Of a stretch of DNA of 62,083 nucleotides, positions 27,733 through 35,552 are shown piece by piece. Origin of the DNA: Acidimicrobiia bacterium (GTDB lineage Bacteria > Actinomycetota > Acidimicrobiia > Spongiisociales > JAENVV01). Every line of letters begins with the position of its first letter. Position 1 is the stretch's first letter. Position numbers and translations under genes: made by a program. The DNA is taken from positions 1-62,083 of the forward strand of contig JBFGJH010000013.1 of the NCBI GenBank assembly GCA_041577335.1, read 5' to 3'. Under the pieces are notes generated by a model. That model had not been told where the DNA came from. It saw only the letters and a list, made by a program, of their open reading frames with translations, and ran no database searches.

Positions 27733-29151
27733 TTGGCTGCGACATCTGAACCGACTCGACCCCTCGCCGATCTCGATTCTGCTGCGCGCAGCCACATGCT
27801 CATCGGCCTGGCATTTCTGGCGATGGCGGCAGTCTTTGGCCTGTTGGCTGCGCTGAAGCTCGCCTATCCGTCCTTCGGGGCAGCGACACCGTTCCTGTCG
27901 TACGGTCGCCTCTGGCCGATGGCGATGAACACGCTCGTGTTCGGATTCCTGACATTCTCGAATATCGCAGCCGCTTATTTCCTCATCCCGCGACTGATGG
28001 GCGCTCGGTTGCGGGGAGAACGCCTTGCCCGCCTCGCCGCCGGGCCCGGCGCAGTCATCACTGCATTGGCCATCGTCCTCGTCGGTGCGGGACTCACTCC
28101 CAACCAGGGTCGGGTGCTCGGCGAGTTCCATGTCGGCTTCGACGTCGCCCTCATTCTCTTCTATCTCGTCCCACTATTCATCTGCCTTCGCACGGTTGCG
28201 GACCGGACCGTCGAATCGATCTTCATCTCGGTGTGGTACATCCTCGGCGGGCTGCTCTGGCTCGTCGGACTCATGGTCGTCGGCCTCAACCCATGGATCG
28301 GTGGCGTCGGTTCGGCACTGCTGGGGTCCTTCTACAGCGCCGGCCTCATCGGCCTGTGGTCCGTGGGCGTTGGCATCGGTGCGGCGTATTACGTCGTGGT
28401 TCGCACGACCGACAACCCGCTCTTCTCGCGGAGCCTTGCCTTGGCGGGGTTCTGGTCGCTGGCCTTCGCCCAGGTTTGGACTGGCCCAGCATCCTTGATC
28501 TTCGGCGCTGCCGCCGAGTGGATCGAGACCATCGCAGTCGTGTTCACTCTGGGGATGATCATTCCCGCTTTGGCTGTGCTCGCCAATTTCATCGGCACCA
28601 TCCAAGGTAAATGGGCATTGGTGCGCGAGCGGTCCGATCTTCGCTTTGCAATAGTGGGCGCGGTGGTCGCGGTTTTCCTGTCACTCGTCACGAGTGCGCA
28701 AGGCTTTCGGTCAGTCGCAGTCGTAACAGGCCAAACCTCCTTCGGGCCGGCTACCCAGACGGGACTCCTCCTGGGCGTCGCTTCGTTGTATTCCGCGGCA
28801 TTCCTCTACTACGCCCTCCCCCGGGCCTTCGGGCGCACGCTCTTCTCAGAGTCGCTCGGCCGGCGCCAGCTGCAACTCACGCTGTGGGGGGTTGGTGGGC
28901 TGGTCTTGTCCATGTGGGTCGGAGGGCTGGCTGCCGGCTACACATGGCTGAGCGGCTCATACACCGGCGCCTTCGCCAGTGTCGGTGAGGGCTTCGTCAA
29001 CACGCTCAACGCCACCGGGCCTTTCCGGATCTCGGCATTCATTTTCAGCTTCGTTGTCGCTGCCGCCCAGCTCACCTTCGTTGTGAACATGTACCGCACA
29101 GTGACGAGTGGCGCGGCCGCTCCTCAAGAGGTCTTGGTGACGGCTCAATGA
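27733..29151 (+). CDS. CcoN (cbb3 oxidase subunit I)-like protein lacking His ligands
   Basis: About 12 TM helices; LSYGRL.P, FISVWY, PLFSRSL..GFW, WTGP resemble the CcoN scaffold; only 2 His in 472 aa. Confidence 0.8.
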   Translation: MAATSEPTRPLADLDSAARSHMLIGLAFLAMAAVFGLLAALKLAYPSFGAATPFLSYGRLWPMAMNTLVFGFLTFSNIAAAYFLIPRLMGARLRGERLARLAAGPGAVITALAIVLVGAGLTPNQGRVLGEFHVGFDVALILFYLVPLFICLRTVADRTVESIFISVWYILGGLLWLVGLMVVGLNPWIGGVGSALLGSFYSAGLIGLWSVGVGIGAAYYVVVRTTDNPLFSRSLALAGFWSLAFAQVWTGPASLIFGAAAEWIETIAVVFTLGMIIPALAVLANFIGTIQGKWALVRERSDLRFAIVGAVVAVFLSLVTSAQGFRSVAVVTGQTSFGPATQTGLLLGVASLYSAAFLYYALPRAFGRTLFSESLGRRQLQLTLWGVGGLVLSMWVGGLAAGYTWLSGSYTGAFASVGEGFVNTLNATGPFRISAFIFSFVVAAAQLTFVVNMYRTVTSGAAAPQEVLVTAQ

Positions 29152-29960
29152 GTGATCTCGCCGCAGCTGCTGCCGCCGTCGGTGGCCCTGAGGACCTCGT
29201 GATGCGGTCCGCCCGCGCCCGAGCCGAGGCAACCGGTGTGCCAGTCGAGGAAGTCTTGGCGGCCTGGGCAGGCGGCGGCTCTGCTCCCGCCGCGACTGCC
29301 GCGCCGGCGACTCCTGCGCCGGCAGAGGCCGAGCTCGAGGAGCAGCTCTCGCCTACACCCCCGGCCGGCGCCGTCGTCGATGAAATGCCCCGCACCGAGC
29401 CCCCTGACATGGCAACGCCGGCAACGGCTGGGCCCGTCGTCGTGGTGGACCAGCGCAAGGGCGCGGCTCCTCTGCTCACCGGGCGGACGGACCGCCCCAT
29501 GTTGTATCTCGCCGGCATCGCACTCCTCTTCATCATCGGAGCCGTTGGCGCCGTGGCGCTGCCGGCCCGCGACGCTCAGGCGGTCGCCGCCGATCAGATC
29601 CCGGGCACGACCCCGATCCTCAGCGAACTCGGCGAAGAGGGACGTCAGGTCTACATGCAGGAGGGCTGCTTCTACTGCCACACCCAGCAGGTGCGGACGG
29701 TCGTCACCGACGTCGGGCTCGGTACGGTCACCGAACCGGGAACTTCCCCTGCCTTGCCGGGCGACACGTTCGGGTATCAGCGGCTCGGGCCCGACCTCAC
29801 TCATGTGGGAAGTCGCGAGCCGACCAACGACGCGGCGTTCCTCCGCACATATCTGCGGGACCCCCTGGGCGTGGTCGACCGGAGCGACCACGCGAGCTTT
29901 GCCTACCTTTCCGATGCCGACCTCGACAGCCTCGTGCAGTACCTGATGGAGTCCCAGTGA
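29148..29960 (+). CDS. CcoO (cbb3 subunit II)-like monoheme cytochrome c
   Basis: GRQVYMQEGCFYCHTQQVR, RLGPDL..VG motifs; one TM helix. Confidence 0.88.
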   Translation: MSDLAAAAAAVGGPEDLVMRSARARAEATGVPVEEVLAAWAGGGSAPAATAAPATPAPAEAELEEQLSPTPPAGAVVDEMPRTEPPDMATPATAGPVVVVDQRKGAAPLLTGRTDRPMLYLAGIALLFIIGAVGAVALPARDAQAVAADQIPGTTPILSELGEEGRQVYMQEGCFYCHTQQVRTVVTDVGLGTVTEPGTSPALPGDTFGYQRLGPDLTHVGSREPTNDAAFLRTYLRDPLGVVDRSDHASFAYLSDADLDSLVQYLMESQ

Positions 29961-29961
29961 T

Positions 29962-31044
29962 ATGAGCGACTATCTCGCAGCAGCCGCATCCGCCGTCGGC
30001 GGGCCGGAGGATCTGGTCATGCGCTCTGCGCGTGCGAGAGCCGAAGCCGCCGGGGTACCGGTCGATGACATCTTGCGAGCCTGGGCGGGTGGCGAGGCAG
30101 CCCCGGCCGGAGCGGCCGCTCAAGCGAGTCCCGAGGCGAGTGACGAGCCAGTTCCAACCGACCCAGTCGAGGTCGCGGAGGCGCCGGCGCCCGAGCCTGA
30201 CAGCACCGAACCTTCCGGAGAACCGGTCCCGGTGGCAGCCGGCGCACCAACTCGGACGGTACAGGGGCCCCCACCCCCGGCAACGGTCACCACGAGTGAA
30301 GCAACCGAGTACGACATGGTCACCACGGTTCCATCGGTCGGCTTGAAGGAGCGCACCAATTCAATCGTGCCGGGCTGGCTGATGGCCTTCTTCGTGATCA
30401 TCCCGATCCTGGCCGTCGGTTATATCACCACCGGGTCTGGCGGCCCGCAATGCGGCGAGGCCGGCCAGCTGGCCGTCGACTTCCGCAACGAACTCGTGAA
30501 CTGCGATCTCACGGCCTATGAAGGCGCCGGCGGGCCGGGCGGCGGTGGCGCGACCAACTTCGTAGCCCTGGGCGGCGAGGTCTACGAAGCCAACTGTGCT
30601 GCCTGCCATCTGTCGAACGGCGGCGGAGGCGCAGCAGGTCCGGCTCTGAGCGGTGGGGCGGTGGTGGCGACGTTCGGGTCGTGCGCCGATCACGCAACGT
30701 GGGTGACTTTGGGAACCGCCGGTTGGACGGCCGAGATCGGAGCGACCTACGGCGACACCAACAAACCGACCGGTGGCTTTGGCAACATGCCAGGATTCGG
30801 AAGCCTGACCGAGGAGCAGATCCAGTCGGTAGCTCTCTTTGAGCGAGTGGTGTTCGGTGGTGCCAATGCCGACGAAGCTCTCGTGGATTGCGGTCTCGTG
30901 GCGACGGCCGACGGAGAAGCACCCGCCGATGGTGAGGCACCTGCGGACGGCGAAGCGCCCGCCGACGGGGAAACACCACCGGCCGAGGGCAACACACCCA
31001 CGGAAACCACCATGGCCCCGGCCGCAGCCCCTGCCACCGAATAG
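29962..31044 (+). CDS. Membrane-anchored monoheme cytochrome c
   Basis: CAACH, GPAL, NMPGF; C-terminal ADGEAP repeats. Confidence 0.85.
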   Translation: MSDYLAAAASAVGGPEDLVMRSARARAEAAGVPVDDILRAWAGGEAAPAGAAAQASPEASDEPVPTDPVEVAEAPAPEPDSTEPSGEPVPVAAGAPTRTVQGPPPPATVTTSEATEYDMVTTVPSVGLKERTNSIVPGWLMAFFVIIPILAVGYITTGSGGPQCGEAGQLAVDFRNELVNCDLTAYEGAGGPGGGGATNFVALGGEVYEANCAACHLSNGGGGAAGPALSGGAVVATFGSCADHATWVTLGTAGWTAEIGATYGDTNKPTGGFGNMPGFGSLTEEQIQSVALFERVVFGGANADEALVDCGLVATADGEAPADGEAPADGEAPADGETPPAEGNTPTETTMAPAAAPATE

Positions 31045-31354
31045 CCGCCGCCCGATCTCGCTCAGTTCGAGCTTCAAGTTGAAGGGGACAAGCATCCAGC
31101 GATGTCTCGATTCCCATTCGGCCGCTCAGAAGAACGGTACCTCGAGATAGAAGTCTCGTTGCAGGCTGACACTCGCTGGATTCCTGATGGTTCGAGAGGG
31201 CAGCTTGGGAGCGATCAGTCCTCCGCCGCCTGACCGACACCCGGCCACCAGCGGATCCAAGAGGGGAGTTGGGCGGCGCCGAGGGCGACACCGCAAAGTC
31301 GAAGCCACCCCACCGCGGGGCGCAGCTCGATCGAATCCCGATTCGACCGAGAAC

Positions 31355-31495
31355 CAACAGAGAGGGCGGACCTTGCGGTCCGCCCTCCCGTCAGACAATC
31401 CCAGCTGACATCGGGGCGGGCTGGGAGGCTTCCGATACACCATGGGTACTGAACGTGCCCAAGGCATAGGTTCGATGTCAGTGAGCTTGCCTTCT
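31355..31495 (-). ncRNA. Candidate small RNA 1
   Basis: Lies between a sigma28-type promoter and a GCAA-loop hairpin with pyrimidine tail; closing stem CTGACATCG/CGATGTCAG. Confidence 0.55.
31362..31387 (-). terminator. Terminator hairpin (copy 1)
   Basis: GAGGGCGGACC-GCAA-GGTCCGCCCTC followed by TCTGTT on the minus strand. Confidence 0.7.
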
Positions 31496-31501
31496 CCAAT
31501 C

Positions 31502-31529
31502 GTATCGGCACTGCCCCCGCATTGCTTTA
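31502..31529 (-). promoter_or_regulatory. Sigma28/WhiG-type promoter
   Basis: TAAA-N16-GCCGATAC on the minus strand with AT-rich upstream DNA. Confidence 0.65.
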
Positions 31530-31682
31530 ACCATTTTCCTTGATTTTGATAACTCTTCTAATTGCGTGAGGGCATTGGTATTCCCGGCTTACCTGGCCTC
31601 CTCGAGCGTCGGCGTGGCACGGGCCCGCACCCTGGAGTGTGGCAATCACCGAGCAGCACGCCAGACGGCATAGAATCTCGGA

Positions 31683-31775
31683 ATGCGGCCCGCGACCACC
31701 TTCGTGCTCATCGCGCTGTTGGCGATTCTCACCATCGCCGGCGCGGTCTTCCTGTTTCAGCTGCTGTCTGCTTGA
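31683..31775 (+). CDS. 30-aa single-TM small protein, probably leaderless
   Basis: MRPATTFVLIALLAILTIAGAVFLFQLLSA; TAGAAT -10 box 6 nt before the ATG; GC3-rich codons. Confidence 0.6.
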   Translation: MRPATTFVLIALLAILTIAGAVFLFQLLSA

Positions 31776-32566
31776 ACAATCACCGACCGGCCCTCGTCGA
31801 GGTGATAGCGCTGGTCGGCACGGCCTTCTCTCACGGAAACGGCGATGAGACCCTGCGAGTCCACAATGAGCATCCCCTCTCCGGCCTCGACCTCACCGTA
31901 CGCGCGGACGTACCGCAGCTCGTGGTGGGTCGGCCCCAGCCGAACCGTCACGGTGTCACCGACCGAGATACCCAGACCGGCAATGTCGTCGGGACCTATG
32001 TTGGTCTGCGCATTTCCAAAGTGGTCGACCCACCACGTCGTCCCGGACACGCTTGTGCCATCAGCCGAAGGCAAAGGAAGCATCGTCGGTGTCAGGGCGG
32101 CCGGATCGACCGTTGGGCCGACGTCCGCGATGGTGACCTGGCCGGAAGCGAGAGCCGCCGCGGCAGGGCCGAACCGGTCGCGACCGTCGAACGTACTCCC
32201 GGCGCTTGGTATCACCAAGTCGGGGTTGGAAATCACATGGGCGCCCGAGGCGCCACCGACCATGGCAACTGCTGGGGATAACAGGCCATTGTCGGGCCCG
32301 ACAAACAGACCCCAGCCTGTCTCAACCACGATTGGTCGACGCTCGGTGCCTACCCCTGGGTCGACCACCGCCAACACGACACCCTGTGGCAGGTATTGAA
32401 TTGCTCTGGTGAGCGCCAAAGCCCCGGCGCGAATATTGCCGGCGGCAATTCCGTGGGTGACATCGATGACCCGGACCTCTGGGGCGATTCTGGCTATGAC
32501 CCCATGAACCACGCCGACAAACTCGTCGTCCGTGCCAAAGTCCGAAATGAAGCTGATCGGCAACAC
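31757..32566 (-). CDS. SAM hydroxide adenosyltransferase / SAM-dependent halogenase family (DUF62)
   Basis: SDFG, IDVTH, VVDPGVGTERR, VGPDNGLL, TFDGRD, VDHFGN. Confidence 0.92.
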   Translation of the reverse strand: MLPISFISDFGTDDEFVGVVHGVIARIAPEVRVIDVTHGIAAGNIRAGALALTRAIQYLPQGVVLAVVDPGVGTERRPIVVETGWGLFVGPDNGLLSPAVAMVGGASGAHVISNPDLVIPSAGSTFDGRDRFGPAAAALASGQVTIADVGPTVDPAALTPTMLPLPSADGTSVSGTTWWVDHFGNAQTNIGPDDIAGLGISVGDTVTVRLGPTHHELRYVRAYGEVEAGEGMLIVDSQGLIAVSVREGRADQRYHLDEGRSVIVQADSS

Positions 32567-32614
32567 AATCGAGCCATCCTAGGGGCGGATGGAGGAGCCC
32601 AAGCCGTCACTACC

Positions 32615-33517
32615 ATGCCACCGATGGCCGACGCGCACCACCACCAGCAGCTCATCCAAGACCTCGTCGCCGCCCAGGGTGTTGCCGTGATCATGGGCGG
32701 CCCCGATACCGGGAAGACCACACTCGCTCGCCAGATTCTGACCGATGCCGCATCGACGGGAGTAGCCGCAGCGTACGTTGATGCCGACGTCGCCCAGTCG
32801 ACGATCGGCCCCCCTACCTGCGCGGGCCTCAAATGGGTGCACAGCCCGGCCGACTTGGACAGCTTGCACCTGGCCGACGAGCTGCGTTTCGTCGGGAGCA
32901 CCGATCCCTCGCGACTGGTGCTGCAAATGGTCATCGCCACCGCCACGCTGGTTGAAAAGGCGCGGGAACACGCCGACCTCATCGTTGTCGATACCACCGG
33001 AACCGTCTCCGGAGTGATCGGCGAAACCCTGAAATATCACAAGATCGAACTGACGCGCCCGGACCACATCGTTTGCATCCAGCGCGGCTCCGAGCTCGAG
33101 CCCATCATCGGCATGCTGCGCAGGTTCTTCTCAGCCGATGTGATCACCACGTCGGTGCACCCTGAGCTGGTTCCTGGATCGGCCGACGAACGAGAGTTCG
33201 GGCGCCGCCAGCAGCTCGCCGCTGCGCTTTCTGAGCCAATGGAGGCCTGGCGGGTCCGTCCAACCGTGTTTGCACCGACTCTTCCGGCCGGGCTGGACCT
33301 GACCCGGCTGGATCGCGTGCTGGTCGGCGTCCAAGACGGTACGGGCCGCTGCCTCGGGCTCGGTGTTCTCACCCATGATGAAGATGTGCTCCGGGTGCTC
33401 ACCAATCATGGAGAGGGCATGCAAGGCCTCCGCCTCGGCTCGGTGCGGGTTGACCTTTCAGAACACACCACCGCGCCGGTCAACTTGCGGCAAGTGATGT
33501 TCGGCGTCGAGATCTGA
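32615..33517 (+). CDS. Clp1/Grc3-like polynucleotide 5'-hydroxyl kinase
   Basis: Walker A GGPDTGKTT, DADVAQSTIGPP, VVDTTG, LKYHKIE, R..RR lid; start trimmed. Confidence 0.85.
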   Translation: MPPMADAHHHQQLIQDLVAAQGVAVIMGGPDTGKTTLARQILTDAASTGVAAAYVDADVAQSTIGPPTCAGLKWVHSPADLDSLHLADELRFVGSTDPSRLVLQMVIATATLVEKAREHADLIVVDTTGTVSGVIGETLKYHKIELTRPDHIVCIQRGSELEPIIGMLRRFFSADVITTSVHPELVPGSADEREFGRRQQLAAALSEPMEAWRVRPTVFAPTLPAGLDLTRLDRVLVGVQDGTGRCLGLGVLTHDEDVLRVLTNHGEGMQGLRLGSVRVDLSEHTTAPVNLRQVMFGVEI

Positions 33518-33591
33518 CCCGTTGTCCGGCCGTGGCGTCACTTCGGGCTCCACTCGGCGTCGCAGGCCATCGAGGGATCGGACCAGGGTGG

Positions 33592-33718
33592 AACACAAGA
33601 GAGGGCGGACCTCACGGTCCGCCCTCCTCGGCGACGCCCAACATATCGAGCCAATGCGGACAGTCCCCGCACTTCCCCGAACAAGGTATTCGCTGGTCCA
33701 ACACCTTGGGCATCGCCT
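33592..33718 (-). ncRNA. Candidate small RNA 2
   Basis: Lies between a sigmaA promoter and a GTGA-loop hairpin; 12-bp closing stem GGCGATGCCCAA/TTGGGCGTCGCC. Confidence 0.6.
33601..33626 (-). terminator. Terminator hairpin (copy 2)
   Basis: GAGGGCGGACC-GTGA-GGTCCGCCCTC followed by TCTTGTGTT; stem identical to 31362-31387. Confidence 0.7.
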
Positions 33719-33724
33719 GGTCGG

Positions 33725-33753
33725 AATGTACGAAGATCGCGGGGTGGCGTCAA
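33725..33753 (-). promoter_or_regulatory. SigmaA-type promoter
   Basis: TTGACG-N17-TACATT on the minus strand. Confidence 0.7.
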
Positions 33754-33928: not shown

Positions 33929-34321
33929 TCAGCCGCCGAGAGCTCGCAGAAGTGGCCGGAACCCGACTTCGATCTGCTCGTAGATCTCAGCCATCACAAA
34001 GCTCATTTCGGCTTCATCGAGGTTCTCGAGAGCCACCCGAGCTCGCAACACAATCCCGTTCTGCTCATCGATGCAGTAGCGGGTGCGCCACGTGTTGCGA
34101 TTCCTCACCAAGCACTGGCGCAGCAACTCGACGGGTTGGTCGCCTGCCGGCACGACGTAGGCCTCGATCCGAACCGACCGCTCACCCACATCGAACCACA
34201 CCGTGGTGAAATCGCGGATCTGTTGGCGCATTCGTACGGCCCTGCGTCCATCTACCTGCTCGGTGTAGACAACCGGGCTGTCTGGATCGTCGATCCAACG
34301 CTCCATCAGCACGCGAATCAT
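33929..34321 (-). CDS. YbjN-domain protein
   Basis: Directly downstream of mshA as in other actinobacteria; L..CL.RN, D..G.I.L.A pattern. Confidence 0.7.
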   Translation of the reverse strand: MIRVLMERWIDDPDSPVVYTEQVDGRRAVRMRQQIRDFTTVWFDVGERSVRIEAYVVPAGDQPVELLRQCLVRNRNTWRTRYCIDEQNGIVLRARVALENLDEAEMSFVMAEIYEQIEVGFRPLLRALGG

Positions 34322-34331
34322 CTCGCTCGGC

Positions 34332-35552
34332 TCAGCTGGTGATGCCGGCATAGAGCTCGAGAAGACGATTGGCGGTGATGGTCCAAGAAAACTTCTCCGC
34401 GTGAGCGATCCCAGCGTCACAAAACGATGCCCGTTTCTGCGGGTCGGCAAGCAGGTCGATCATCGCCCCGGCGTAGTCGCCAGGCTCCCAACCGTCGATG
34501 AGGACACCGCTCGTATCATCGGCGACCGCGAAGCTCAGCCCACCGATCGCTGAGGCGATAACCGGAACACCACATGCCTGCGCTTCGACAGCAACCAGGC
34601 CGAAGCTCTCGCTTCGCGAGGGCAGCAAGAGCAGATCGGCAGCCTGATAGAACGAGGCGAGCTCTCGGTGCTCGACCGGAGCCCGCCACATCACCCGGCC
34701 CTCGATCCCGAGCTCCGCGACGCGATGGTGCGCTGCCTCGTATTCCTCCTCGCCGGTCTCACCGGACGGTCCCCCGACGACGAGAAGATCGACGTCGGAG
34801 CGCTCTTGGGCAACCTTCGCGAAGGCTTCCAACGCCACATCGATCCCTTTGAGCGCTTGAATCCGCCCGACGAAGAGCACGACATCACGCATTGGGTCGA
34901 CCCCGACTGCCGTACGGCTGGCTCTCAAATCGCCCGGCTTGAACAGCTCGTGGTTGATTCCTGGCGGGTTGAGGCACAGGCGGGTGGGATCGGCCCCGTA
35001 GTGCTCGAGCAGGTCGTCGAATTCGACCGGCGTTGAGGAAATGACGCAGTCTGAGCCGCCGATAACGTCGATCTCGGCGGCGATCCGGAGGAGGGCGGCC
35101 GGCGGTTCATCGTCTCTCTTGGTGAGGTCCTTGACGCGACCGAGGGTATGGAATGAATTGGCGAGTGGGATGTCCAGCACTCGCTTCACCATCAGACCGG
35201 CCCAGCCGCTCAACCAGTAGTGACTGTGGACCAGGTCATAATTGCGGTCCTCGGACGTCGCCCATTCGATGACCTCCTCGGCAAAGTCGAAGACGTGGTC
35301 GGAGAGTTGCCGCACGGGCAAGGGAAGTGTTGGGCCCGCCTCGATTTGGACCACGCGGTAGCCCTCGACAACATCGACGATCGCTGGGCTCACTGGATCA
35401 CATCGGCGCGTGAATACGTCTACCTCGACGCCGCGCCCGGCCATCGTGCGCGCCAGCTCGTCGACATAGACGTTCATGCCGCCGGCGTTTCCGGTGCCGG
35501 GACGACTGAGCGGAGACGTGTGAAAACTCAGGTAGGCAACGCGTTTGATCAT
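34332..35552 (-). CDS. mshA: D-inositol-3-phosphate glycosyltransferase
   Basis: HTSPL..PGTGNAGGMNVY, HSHYWLSG, GRIQALKG, SESFGLVAVEAQACG. Confidence 0.92.
   Translation of the reverse strand: MIKRVAYLSFHTSPLSRPGTGNAGGMNVYVDELARTMAGRGVEVDVFTRRCDPVSPAIVDVVEGYRVVQIEAGPTLPLPVRQLSDHVFDFAEEVIEWATSEDRNYDLVHSHYWLSGWAGLMVKRVLDIPLANSFHTLGRVKDLTKRDDEPPAALLRIAAEIDVIGGSDCVISSTPVEFDDLLEHYGADPTRLCLNPPGINHELFKPGDLRASRTAVGVDPMRDVVLFVGRIQALKGIDVALEAFAKVAQERSDVDLLVVGGPSGETGEEEYEAAHHRVAELGIEGRVMWRAPVEHRELASFYQAADLLLLPSRSESFGLVAVEAQACGVPVIASAIGGLSFAVADDTSGVLIDGWEPGDYAGAMIDLLADPQKRASFCDAGIAHAEKFSWTITANRLLELYAGITS

Follow-up and report, generated by a model that had tools for sequence, protein, structure and literature searches.

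The window analysed here is a stretch of 62,083 nucleotides (nt) from the Acidimicrobiia, a class of bacteria that is abundant in soil, freshwater and marine samples and whose members are mostly uncultured. It corresponds to contig C13 of a metagenome-assembled genome (3,375,592 bases in 128 contigs, 63% G+C, 90.75% complete). Two minus-strand units, A (approximately 33718-33592) and B (approximately 31495-31352), flank a divergent gene pair comprising a SAM_HAT gene on the minus strand and a Clp1-type gene on the plus strand. An original prediction had described two such units, each with a promoter, a long helix closing the 5' and 3' ends, the same 11-bp GNRA hairpin and a pyrimidine tail, bracketing a SAM enzyme and a Clp1-type gene. 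All of these elements were found, and the Pfam SAM_HAT and CLP1_P matches do lie between A and B. The two units are made up as follows.

33725..33753, minus strand: candidate promoter of unit A, sigma-70 type, with -35 TTGACG, a 17-nt spacer and -10 TACATT (consensus scan)
33628..33718, minus strand: RNA body of unit A, predicted start at A33718 (fold and alignment A1)
33590..33627, minus strand: putative intrinsic terminator of unit A, with a 12-bp stem, GUGA loop and tail CUUGUGUUCC (terminator scan; hairpin 33627-33600)
31502..31529, minus strand: candidate promoter of unit B, sigma-28 (FliA/WhiG/SigD) type, TAAAG-N16-GCCGATAC (genome motif scan)
31390..31495, minus strand: RNA body of unit B, predicted start at about 31495 (fold and alignment A2)
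31350..31389, minus strand: putative intrinsic terminator of unit B, with a 13-bp stem, GCAA loop and tail UGUUGGUUCU (terminator scan; hairpin 31389-31360)

We consider it likely, from the features described below, that A and B are genuine, independent small RNA (sRNA) genes, each complete as a transcription unit, from promoter through structured body to intrinsic terminator. The core of A and the core of B each occur as a single copy in the genome. The promoters belong to different classes, as had been proposed: consensus and motif scans returned a sigma-70-type element for A and a sigma-28-type element for B.

The A promoter is the only sigma-70-type match between positions 31000 and 34000 (0.4 expected), and the arrangement TTGAC-N17/18-TAnnnT recurs at an unchanged distance upstream of A in the aligned relatives. 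The predicted start was placed by its distance from the -10 element. The RNA would be closed by a helix pairing 33717-33706 with 33641-33630 and carries an invariant apex, GUUCGGGGAAGUGCGG, at 33682-33667 (the 16-mer position); its predicted folding energy of -76.8 kcal/mol (z -6.35) was not equalled by any of 200 shuffled sequences. In relatives found by BLAST and pattern searches, the A body likewise follows a YbjN-family gene at the corresponding position. Non-redundant copies, 83 in number, were aligned with MAFFT (alignment A1), the copies of the window and of the same-genus genome G001 having been dropped by the fold filter and restored by hand. RNAalifold returned one long hairpin of 21 consensus pairs, 14 of them with compensatory changes. 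Cells of the alignment were paired in 94.8% of cases, compared with 81.4% after shuffling and 35-49% when the partner strand was slid, and double-sided changes were found in 238 cells, a number reached by none of 500 shuffles. A single pair of the basal helix, for example, is represented by G-C (37), C-G (31), A-U (6), G-U (6) and U-G (2).

Twelve contiguous positions of the A apex, GGGGAAGUGCGG, are invariant across A1, and the invariant apex motif is GUUCGGGGAAGUGC. The apex reads CCG-U-U-C-[GGGGAA]-G-U-G-CGG, in which a short stem and a U-U mismatch are followed by a C-G pair closing the GGGGAA loop. A strict pattern for A was matched in 54 of the 301 class genomes sampled, representing at least 14 families, and the apex 16-mer was found in 6/18 class genomes compared with 1/233 other Actinomycetota sampled. 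Selection seems to have acted on the rod shape and the apex, for which a protein would be the likeliest partner. In other orders (loci L187-L200), members of the A family have one more hairpin on the 5' side, its loop carrying a conserved CCGACGGG(U); this hairpin is absent in the order to which the window belongs.

The sigma-28-type motif of B ends 7 nt before the predicted start and thereby matches TAAA(G)-N15/16-GCCGATAA at the right distance. The body is predicted to be closed by a helix pairing approximately 31492-31473 with 31413-31393, within which lie an inner hairpin (31468-31436, its loop holding GGCACGUUC; the loop reads GCACGUUC in the analysis of homologues) and an invariant 17-mer, GCCUCCCAGCCCGCCCC, at 31429-31413. 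The fold (-72.3 kcal/mol, z -4.79) was again matched by none of 200 shuffles. In an alignment of 90 non-redundant B sequences (A2), the 11 pairs of the inner hairpin were paired in 86% of cases compared with 25-46% when slid, and seven of the 11 showed changes on both sides. The closing arms were not reliably alignable, so their pairing was computed directly for 88 sequences representing 46 arm types: cognate 5' and 3' arms paired with a mean of -29.3 kcal/mol, compared with -19.9 for 6394 dissimilar non-cognate combinations. Within the 17-mer, the hexamer CUCCCA has a predicted unpaired probability of 0.78-0.90 (mean for the RNA 0.36) in a loop closed by two G-C pairs, and the CCCGCCCC that follows the loop is predicted to be partly paired. 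Covariation and conservation of the upstream stems had been named in advance as a check, and compensatory changes across homologues are present in the bodies of both units. The stronger part of this evidence lies in the slid-partner controls and in the many distinct pair types.

Matches to the pattern GGCACGTTC-N(8-36)-GCCTCCCAGCCCGCCCC come from more than 120 species genomes among the matches listed. The full B pattern was found in 45/301 genomes of the class sample, confined to four families of the window's order (f1, 6/7; f4, 32/35; f6, 3/3; f7, 3/3), while the exact 17-mer occurs in 53/151 class genomes from approximately 16 families, almost always as a single copy (a reversed control gave no hits). 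Beyond the class, a 15-mer of B is present as a single copy in 10/14 genomes of family f53, of which two (G355 and G466) are unpublished; in other outside families hits were scattered, at about the frequency of the control hits. Alignment rows from unpublished genomes are those of G036 (L015 in A1, L051 in A2) and G309 (L188 in A1), and no conclusion rests on unpublished rows alone. Eight f53 loci and six loci from other taxonomic orders showed the same build, namely a sigma-28-like promoter, long closing helix, inner hairpin, GA-GCCUCCCAGCCCGCCCC-AAG and terminator. The orientation of B flips between lineages while its position remains constant, as expected for an autonomous unit.

The promoter motif of B is similarly widespread. 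The sequence T[AC]AA[AG]-N13-18-(G/N)NCGA(T/A) was found upstream of 65 of the 90 non-redundant B homologues and in none of the reverse-complement and shuffled controls. In the majority of the 25 homologues that lacked a match, CCGATA stood at the very edge of the stretch examined. A gene for a FliA/WhiG sigma factor is present in the window's genome (G000; TIGR02479, 274.4 bits, cut-off 189.6), and a FliA/WhiG sigma exceeded the cut-off in 70/81 genomes of the order, including all those sampled from the B-bearing families f1, f4, f6 and f7. Since it is also found in families f2, f10 and f12, which lack B, the co-distribution with B is consistent but not discriminating. Twelve sigma-28-like sites were located in G000, that of B and 11 others.

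C10:55609-55636, plus strand; C7:59273-59300, minus strand; and nine further sites: sigma-28-like sites, TCAAG-N15/16-GCCGATAA (motif scan)

Among the open reading frames (ORFs) that follow the other sites are those of a CheA-like kinase with Hpt, HATPase, CheW and receiver domains, a cell-wall peptidase of the M23 family, a histidine kinase and a KAS III-like enzyme. This set of sites offers a first sketch of a WhiG/FliA regulon.

The 3' ends of the two units are alike. The hairpin GAGGGCGGACC-N4-GGTCCGCCCTC lies at 31362-31387 and 33601-33626, its stem GAGGGCGGACC/GGTCCGCCCTC being common to both units while the loops on the minus strand, GCAA in B and GUGA in A, are both of the GNRA type and are followed by the pyrimidine tails TGTTGGTTCT and CTTGTGTTCC. 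Flanks included, the likeness extends over 30 nt at 93% identity, in direct copies 2239 nt apart. Both hairpins were listed by the terminator scan (13 pairs in B and 12 in A, 4-nt loops, tails with at least 5 T in 8). With up to three mismatches, these are the two matches in the window, and none of 100 shuffles yielded any; with up to two mismatches, they are the two copies in the whole assembly, although at 90.75% completeness a few copies could be unassembled. A genome-wide repeat of the repetitive extragenic palindrome (REP) or miniature inverted-repeat transposable element (MITE) kind was thus rejected, and with it one of the outcomes that the original prediction had named as fatal to itself.

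The B homologues all terminate in a GC-rich hairpin and a T-tract; the sequences differ but occupy the same place. In G001, B ends in GGGCGGACC-CUCG-GGUCCGCCC, which is of the window's type, whereas A (locus L008) ends in ACGGCGGCC-UCU-GGCCGCCGU, unlike A of the window. As judged from these sequences, the two matching hairpins serve as intrinsic terminators. Most simply, the B-type terminator would have been ancestral in the genus, and a copy of it, made by local duplication or gene conversion, would have replaced that of A in this lineage only. The identity would therefore be recent and local, given that A ends in a different hairpin in the sister species, and a recent local copying of a terminator would explain why two unrelated RNAs have 30 nt in common. 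Identical terminators can arise in this way and are then no sign of relatedness. The proposal of an undescribed sRNA pair accordingly stands in one respect, as both units are conserved structured RNA genes that lie outside Rfam, but not in the other: the bodies are unrelated and share no similarity. A and B would represent different families, each inherited vertically and independently. Nor was pairing between them indicated. The A-B duplex scored -62.1 compared with a mean of -58.0 for shuffled A, with 59/300 shuffles as good, and the invariant blocks of the two can form at most five consecutive G-C pairs (by eye).

The genes around the two units are listed below.

31757..32566, minus strand: S-adenosyl-L-methionine (SAM) hydroxide adenosyltransferase/(R)-SAM hydrolase-like gene, termed SAM_HAT (Pfam SAM_HAT_N 8e-45, SAM_HAT_C 2.8e-18)
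32396..33517, plus strand: Clp1-type P-loop protein gene, longest ORF, convergent with A (Pfam CLP1_P 6.6e-27, residues 101-273)
31683..31775, plus strand: conserved ORF of 30 amino acids (aa) predicted to form a single membrane helix (MRPATTFVLIALLAILTIAGAVFLFQLLSA), divergent from B here (translation)
33929..34450, minus strand: YbjN-family gene, immediately upstream of A (Pfam YbjN 3.5e-08)
34332-35552: GT4 glycosyltransferase gene, in a conserved block with YbjN (Pfam Glycos_transf_1 4.3e-37)

The best NCBIfam match of the SAM_HAT gene, (R)-S-adenosyl-L-methionine hydrolase, scored 185 bits, below the cut-off of 350. In its longest form, the Clp1-type ORF has approximately 170 nt in common with the start of the divergent SAM_HAT gene. 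Given this overlap and a CLP1_P domain that sets in at residue 101, the gene probably starts near 32615, which would leave approximately 50 nt for two divergent promoters. The 30-aa ORF, which shares 19 nt with the 3' end of the SAM_HAT gene and has no match in Pfam or NCBIfam, adjoins cbb3-type oxidase genes and could be an unannotated small subunit. Two of its neighbours, a FixO-like gene (29148-29960, plus strand) and a cytochrome c gene (29962-31044, plus strand), encode near-identical N-terminal regions of approximately 45 aa (…AAAAVGGPEDLVMRSARARAEA.GVPV…L.AWAGG…) that are followed by different haem domains.

The enclosed genes had led the original prediction to connect both RNAs with the Clp1-like kinase. 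Under such a reading, A and B would be substrates or partners of a Clp1-like RNA kinase and a SAM enzyme within one functional module, and the gene order of the window's own order lends this some colour: across 80 loci around B, the arrangement is FixO, cytochrome c, B, SAM_HAT, Clp1, A, YbjN and GT4, with SAM_HAT present in 76, Clp1 in 68 and the A 12-mer in 48 (rows were counted by hand, and several loci end at contig ends). The core of B also lies within 5 kb of a SAM_HAT match in 49 of the 53 class genomes that carry it (compared by hand). Elsewhere the association dissolves. Eight loci from other taxonomic orders, selected by their A motif and representing seven further families, have the gene order GT4, YbjN, A, proC, SAM_HAT and B; SAM_HAT is retained in all eight and B in six, but Clp1 is absent from every one. 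The CLP1_P family was not detected in 4/4 such genomes from other taxonomic orders, the window's genome serving as a matching positive control, and a Clp1 protein query returned nothing in 5/5. In family f53 (L245-L252), B is flanked on one side by a divergent AMP-binding (acyl-CoA-synthetase-like) gene and is followed by a xylose-isomerase-like TIM-barrel gene; the 6.5 kb around B gave no SAM_HAT match, and neither SAM_HAT nor Clp1 is nearby. SAM_HAT itself is found in 145/151 class genomes compared with 53/151 for B and so does not depend on B; being near-universal, it makes the co-distribution of the two uninformative, and this was rejected as evidence. As the whole block from GT4 to proC or SAM_HAT shows a conserved order, adjacency alone argues weakly. 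A link to Clp1 is not supported, since both RNAs persist where no Clp1 gene was found and proC stands in its place, and a joint module is very improbable. The adjacency of SAM_HAT is best read as stable gene order, the enzyme genes being neighbours of the RNAs rather than demonstrated partners. ORFs resembling the AMP-binding gene flank B in the Acidimicrobiia loci L224, L225 and L228 also, which hints at an older common neighbourhood.

A less distant alternative is that one or both units are cis-acting leaders (riboswitches or attenuators), B gating the 30-aa ORF through its terminator and A gating proC or another downstream gene. Of 146 distinct loci, 80 have a hydrophobic ORF beginning M[RK]P and encoding 24-45 aa no more than 450 nt from the B core, mostly just after the B terminator and on the same strand. 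In other taxonomic orders, proC follows A at a distance of 18-130 nt in at least 18/29 loci (two confirmed as pyrroline-5-carboxylate reductase by Pfam), while elsewhere other genes start right after A. In the window, however, B is read in the direction leading away from the small ORF, and A faces the 3' end of the Clp1-type gene, with which it converges, so that neither has a gene to control. What follows A also varies, from proC to a gene of the phosphoenolpyruvate-mutase family, genes of no assigned identity or none at all; in f53, it is the TIM-barrel gene that B precedes, and no Rfam riboswitch was matched. TAnnnT hexamers (TACCCT, TACGCT, TAGCCT) stand 7-10 nt before the start of proC (L184-L211), an arrangement suggestive of a leaderless mRNA and of a promoter belonging to proC itself that overlaps the 3' side of the A gene. 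We regard a leader function as unlikely. Still less plausible is that the 2.2-kb SAM_HAT-Clp1 segment was brought in by a mobile or repeated element with the hairpins as its termini (REP, MITE or attachment-site repeats) and that the RNAs are incidental. The two 30-nt direct copies would suit such an element, but the genome holds just these two, the sister species has no repeat at A, and the enclosed genes and both RNA bodies occupy the same place in dozens of species with differing hairpins. Equally hard to credit is that the units encode small proteins. That neither contains a convincing ORF had been asserted from the outset, which holds insofar as the ORFs of the units are not conserved in relatives, although A does contain an ORF of 34 codons (cysteine-rich, from the ATG at 33711 to a TGA in the hairpin loop), and two ORFs, of 98 and 113 aa, extend across B. 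The ATG of A is absent in the aligned relatives (GCAAGG in place of GCGATG in the window), the ORFs of B are likewise not conserved, substitutions are compensatory in helices and not codon-periodic, and the invariant blocks are invariant at every position.

Several observations nonetheless weigh against A and B as independent sRNA genes of the kind proposed, or against the mode of action suggested for B. The ends and sigma dependence of both RNAs were read from motifs alone, and their transcription and mode of action are likewise predicted. For the window's A, the fold of minimum energy departs from the consensus rod and forms a three-way junction, and no other A copies diverge as much in the middle helix as those of the window and G001. 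The MAFFT alignments are noisy in the variable helices, and related sequences can beat every shuffle without any structure being present. The small membrane ORF lies 3' of B and on the same strand in most B loci, making a role in cis possible for the family though not in the window. The longest perfect complements to the B core in the genome span 12-13 nt, and among the genome-wide complements of at least 11 nt to the core and its flanks, none placed a target at a plausible ribosome-binding site. Finally, an invariant element of 17 nt is longer than a seed usually needs, which hints at some other partner.

With independent sRNA genes as the preferred reading, the following picture may be drawn. 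A would be an RNA of approximately 125 nt, read from a housekeeping-type promoter and folded into one long irregular hairpin, and probably works through its invariant apex GUUCGGGGAAGUGC, in which the C-G pair closes GGGGAA, by binding a protein or another RNA. B would be an RNA of approximately 140 nt read from a sigma-28 (FliA/WhiG) promoter, whose variable closing helix holds the inner hairpin and the invariant C-rich 17-nt element, with CUCCCA exposed in a small loop. This loop, which resembles an anti-Shine-Dalgarno sequence, may pair in trans with G-rich ribosome-binding sites in the manner of 6C RNA, making B the post-transcriptional arm of the WhiG/FliA regulon. We advance such a WhiG/FliA-controlled, trans-acting base-pairing mechanism as the likeliest for B, though tentatively and by analogy, at somewhat less than even chances. 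A bolder and improbable proposal is that B, instead of being an ordinary seed-pairing sRNA, is a new and widely conserved housekeeping-type RNA of early-branching Actinomycetota, controlled by WhiG/FliA and spread over at least two classes, in which the 17-mer GCCUCCCAGCCCGCCCC docks on an equally invariant partner. Candidate partners are the ribosome, RNA polymerase and a protein that binds C-rich RNA; on the ribosome, the 17-mer would imitate the anti-Shine-Dalgarno end of 16S rRNA or vie with it. The same block of the chromosome would then also house A, with its invariant G-rich apex, as another RNA of this type.

As single-copy, strongly conserved and covarying RNA genes, A and B provide testable entry points for the class. 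B in particular would tie a post-transcriptional regulator to the WhiG/FliA sigma factor and would extend the idea of sigma-28-controlled sRNAs from the Proteobacteria to the Gram-positive actinobacteria. The motifs of both are ready for use in covariance models, which would stop the hairpins and spurious ORFs from being misread during annotation. Full-text literature searches (small RNAs of Acidimicrobiia; WhiG or sigma-28 sRNAs in Actinobacteria) returned no description of A or B and no regulatory RNA described for the class; a paper on Streptomyces sRNAs mentions whiG (PMC2602773).

To place the two units among known RNAs, the region was scanned with the 4227 models of Rfam 15 at E<=10, as was each unit alone. 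No family reached its gathering threshold on A or B, in line with the prediction that neither belongs to a known family, and the weak matches fell mostly on the terminator hairpins. The best scores were 22.3 bits for ar35 on A (gathering score 45) and 16.8 for STnc320 on B (50). Like A, ar35 (RF02346) is a stem-rich sRNA with a GC-rich terminator end, but it is an alphaproteobacterial family, and the match, though spanning the whole model, owes its identity mostly to the terminal hairpin; at 22.3 bits, membership of A was rejected. A was also rejected as the signal recognition particle RNA, which lies elsewhere in the genome (67 bits). The 6S model found nothing, and neither unit has the size or shape of 6S RNA. 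We conclude that A and B are probably two RNA families new to Rfam, both of them bacterial sRNAs in kind, of which B is the more notable, given its predicted control by sigma-28, its occurrence outside a single class and the 17 invariant letters of its core.

The closest parallel in design to B is the actinobacterial 6C RNA (RF01066), which consists of two hairpins with C-rich loops. Both are stand-alone, terminator-ended actinobacterial sRNAs that expose a C-rich hairpin loop, that of B being predicted to be open. The 6C model (47 bits) gave no match on B at E<=10 over 201 bases, and its best match in the genome, 23.9 bits, lies at another locus; the Corynebacterium glutamicum control was also under the cut-off in that search, so the genome-wide result is weak evidence. 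The 6C RNA of Mycobacterium tuberculosis (B11) is reported to bind several mRNAs through its C-rich loops independently of an RNA chaperone (PMC6486639), and that of C. glutamicum to be read from a SigA/SigB promoter (PMC5014011). B departs from this design in presenting one small C-rich loop within a multiloop closed by a 20-25-bp helix, where 6C has two C-rich hairpins, and in possessing a 17-nt invariant block and a sigma-28-type promoter, in contrast to the SigA/SigB promoter reported for C. glutamicum 6C (PMC5014011).

The sRNAs UhpU, MotR, FliX and FlgO of Escherichia coli depend on Hfq. They are reported to be sigma-28-dependent members of the flagellar regulon derived from untranslated regions (UTRs) (PMC10578931), and a sigma-28-dependent sRNA pair has been described in Campylobacter jejuni (PMC11187230). 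With these RNAs B would share control by a late flagellar or FliA-type sigma factor and, presumably, a function in the post-transcriptional tuning of the regulon. It differs from the E. coli RNAs, reported to be UTR-derived, in being a stand-alone gene of a Gram-positive phylum with no sequence likeness to them, and in owing its proposed sigma dependence to the promoter motif alone.

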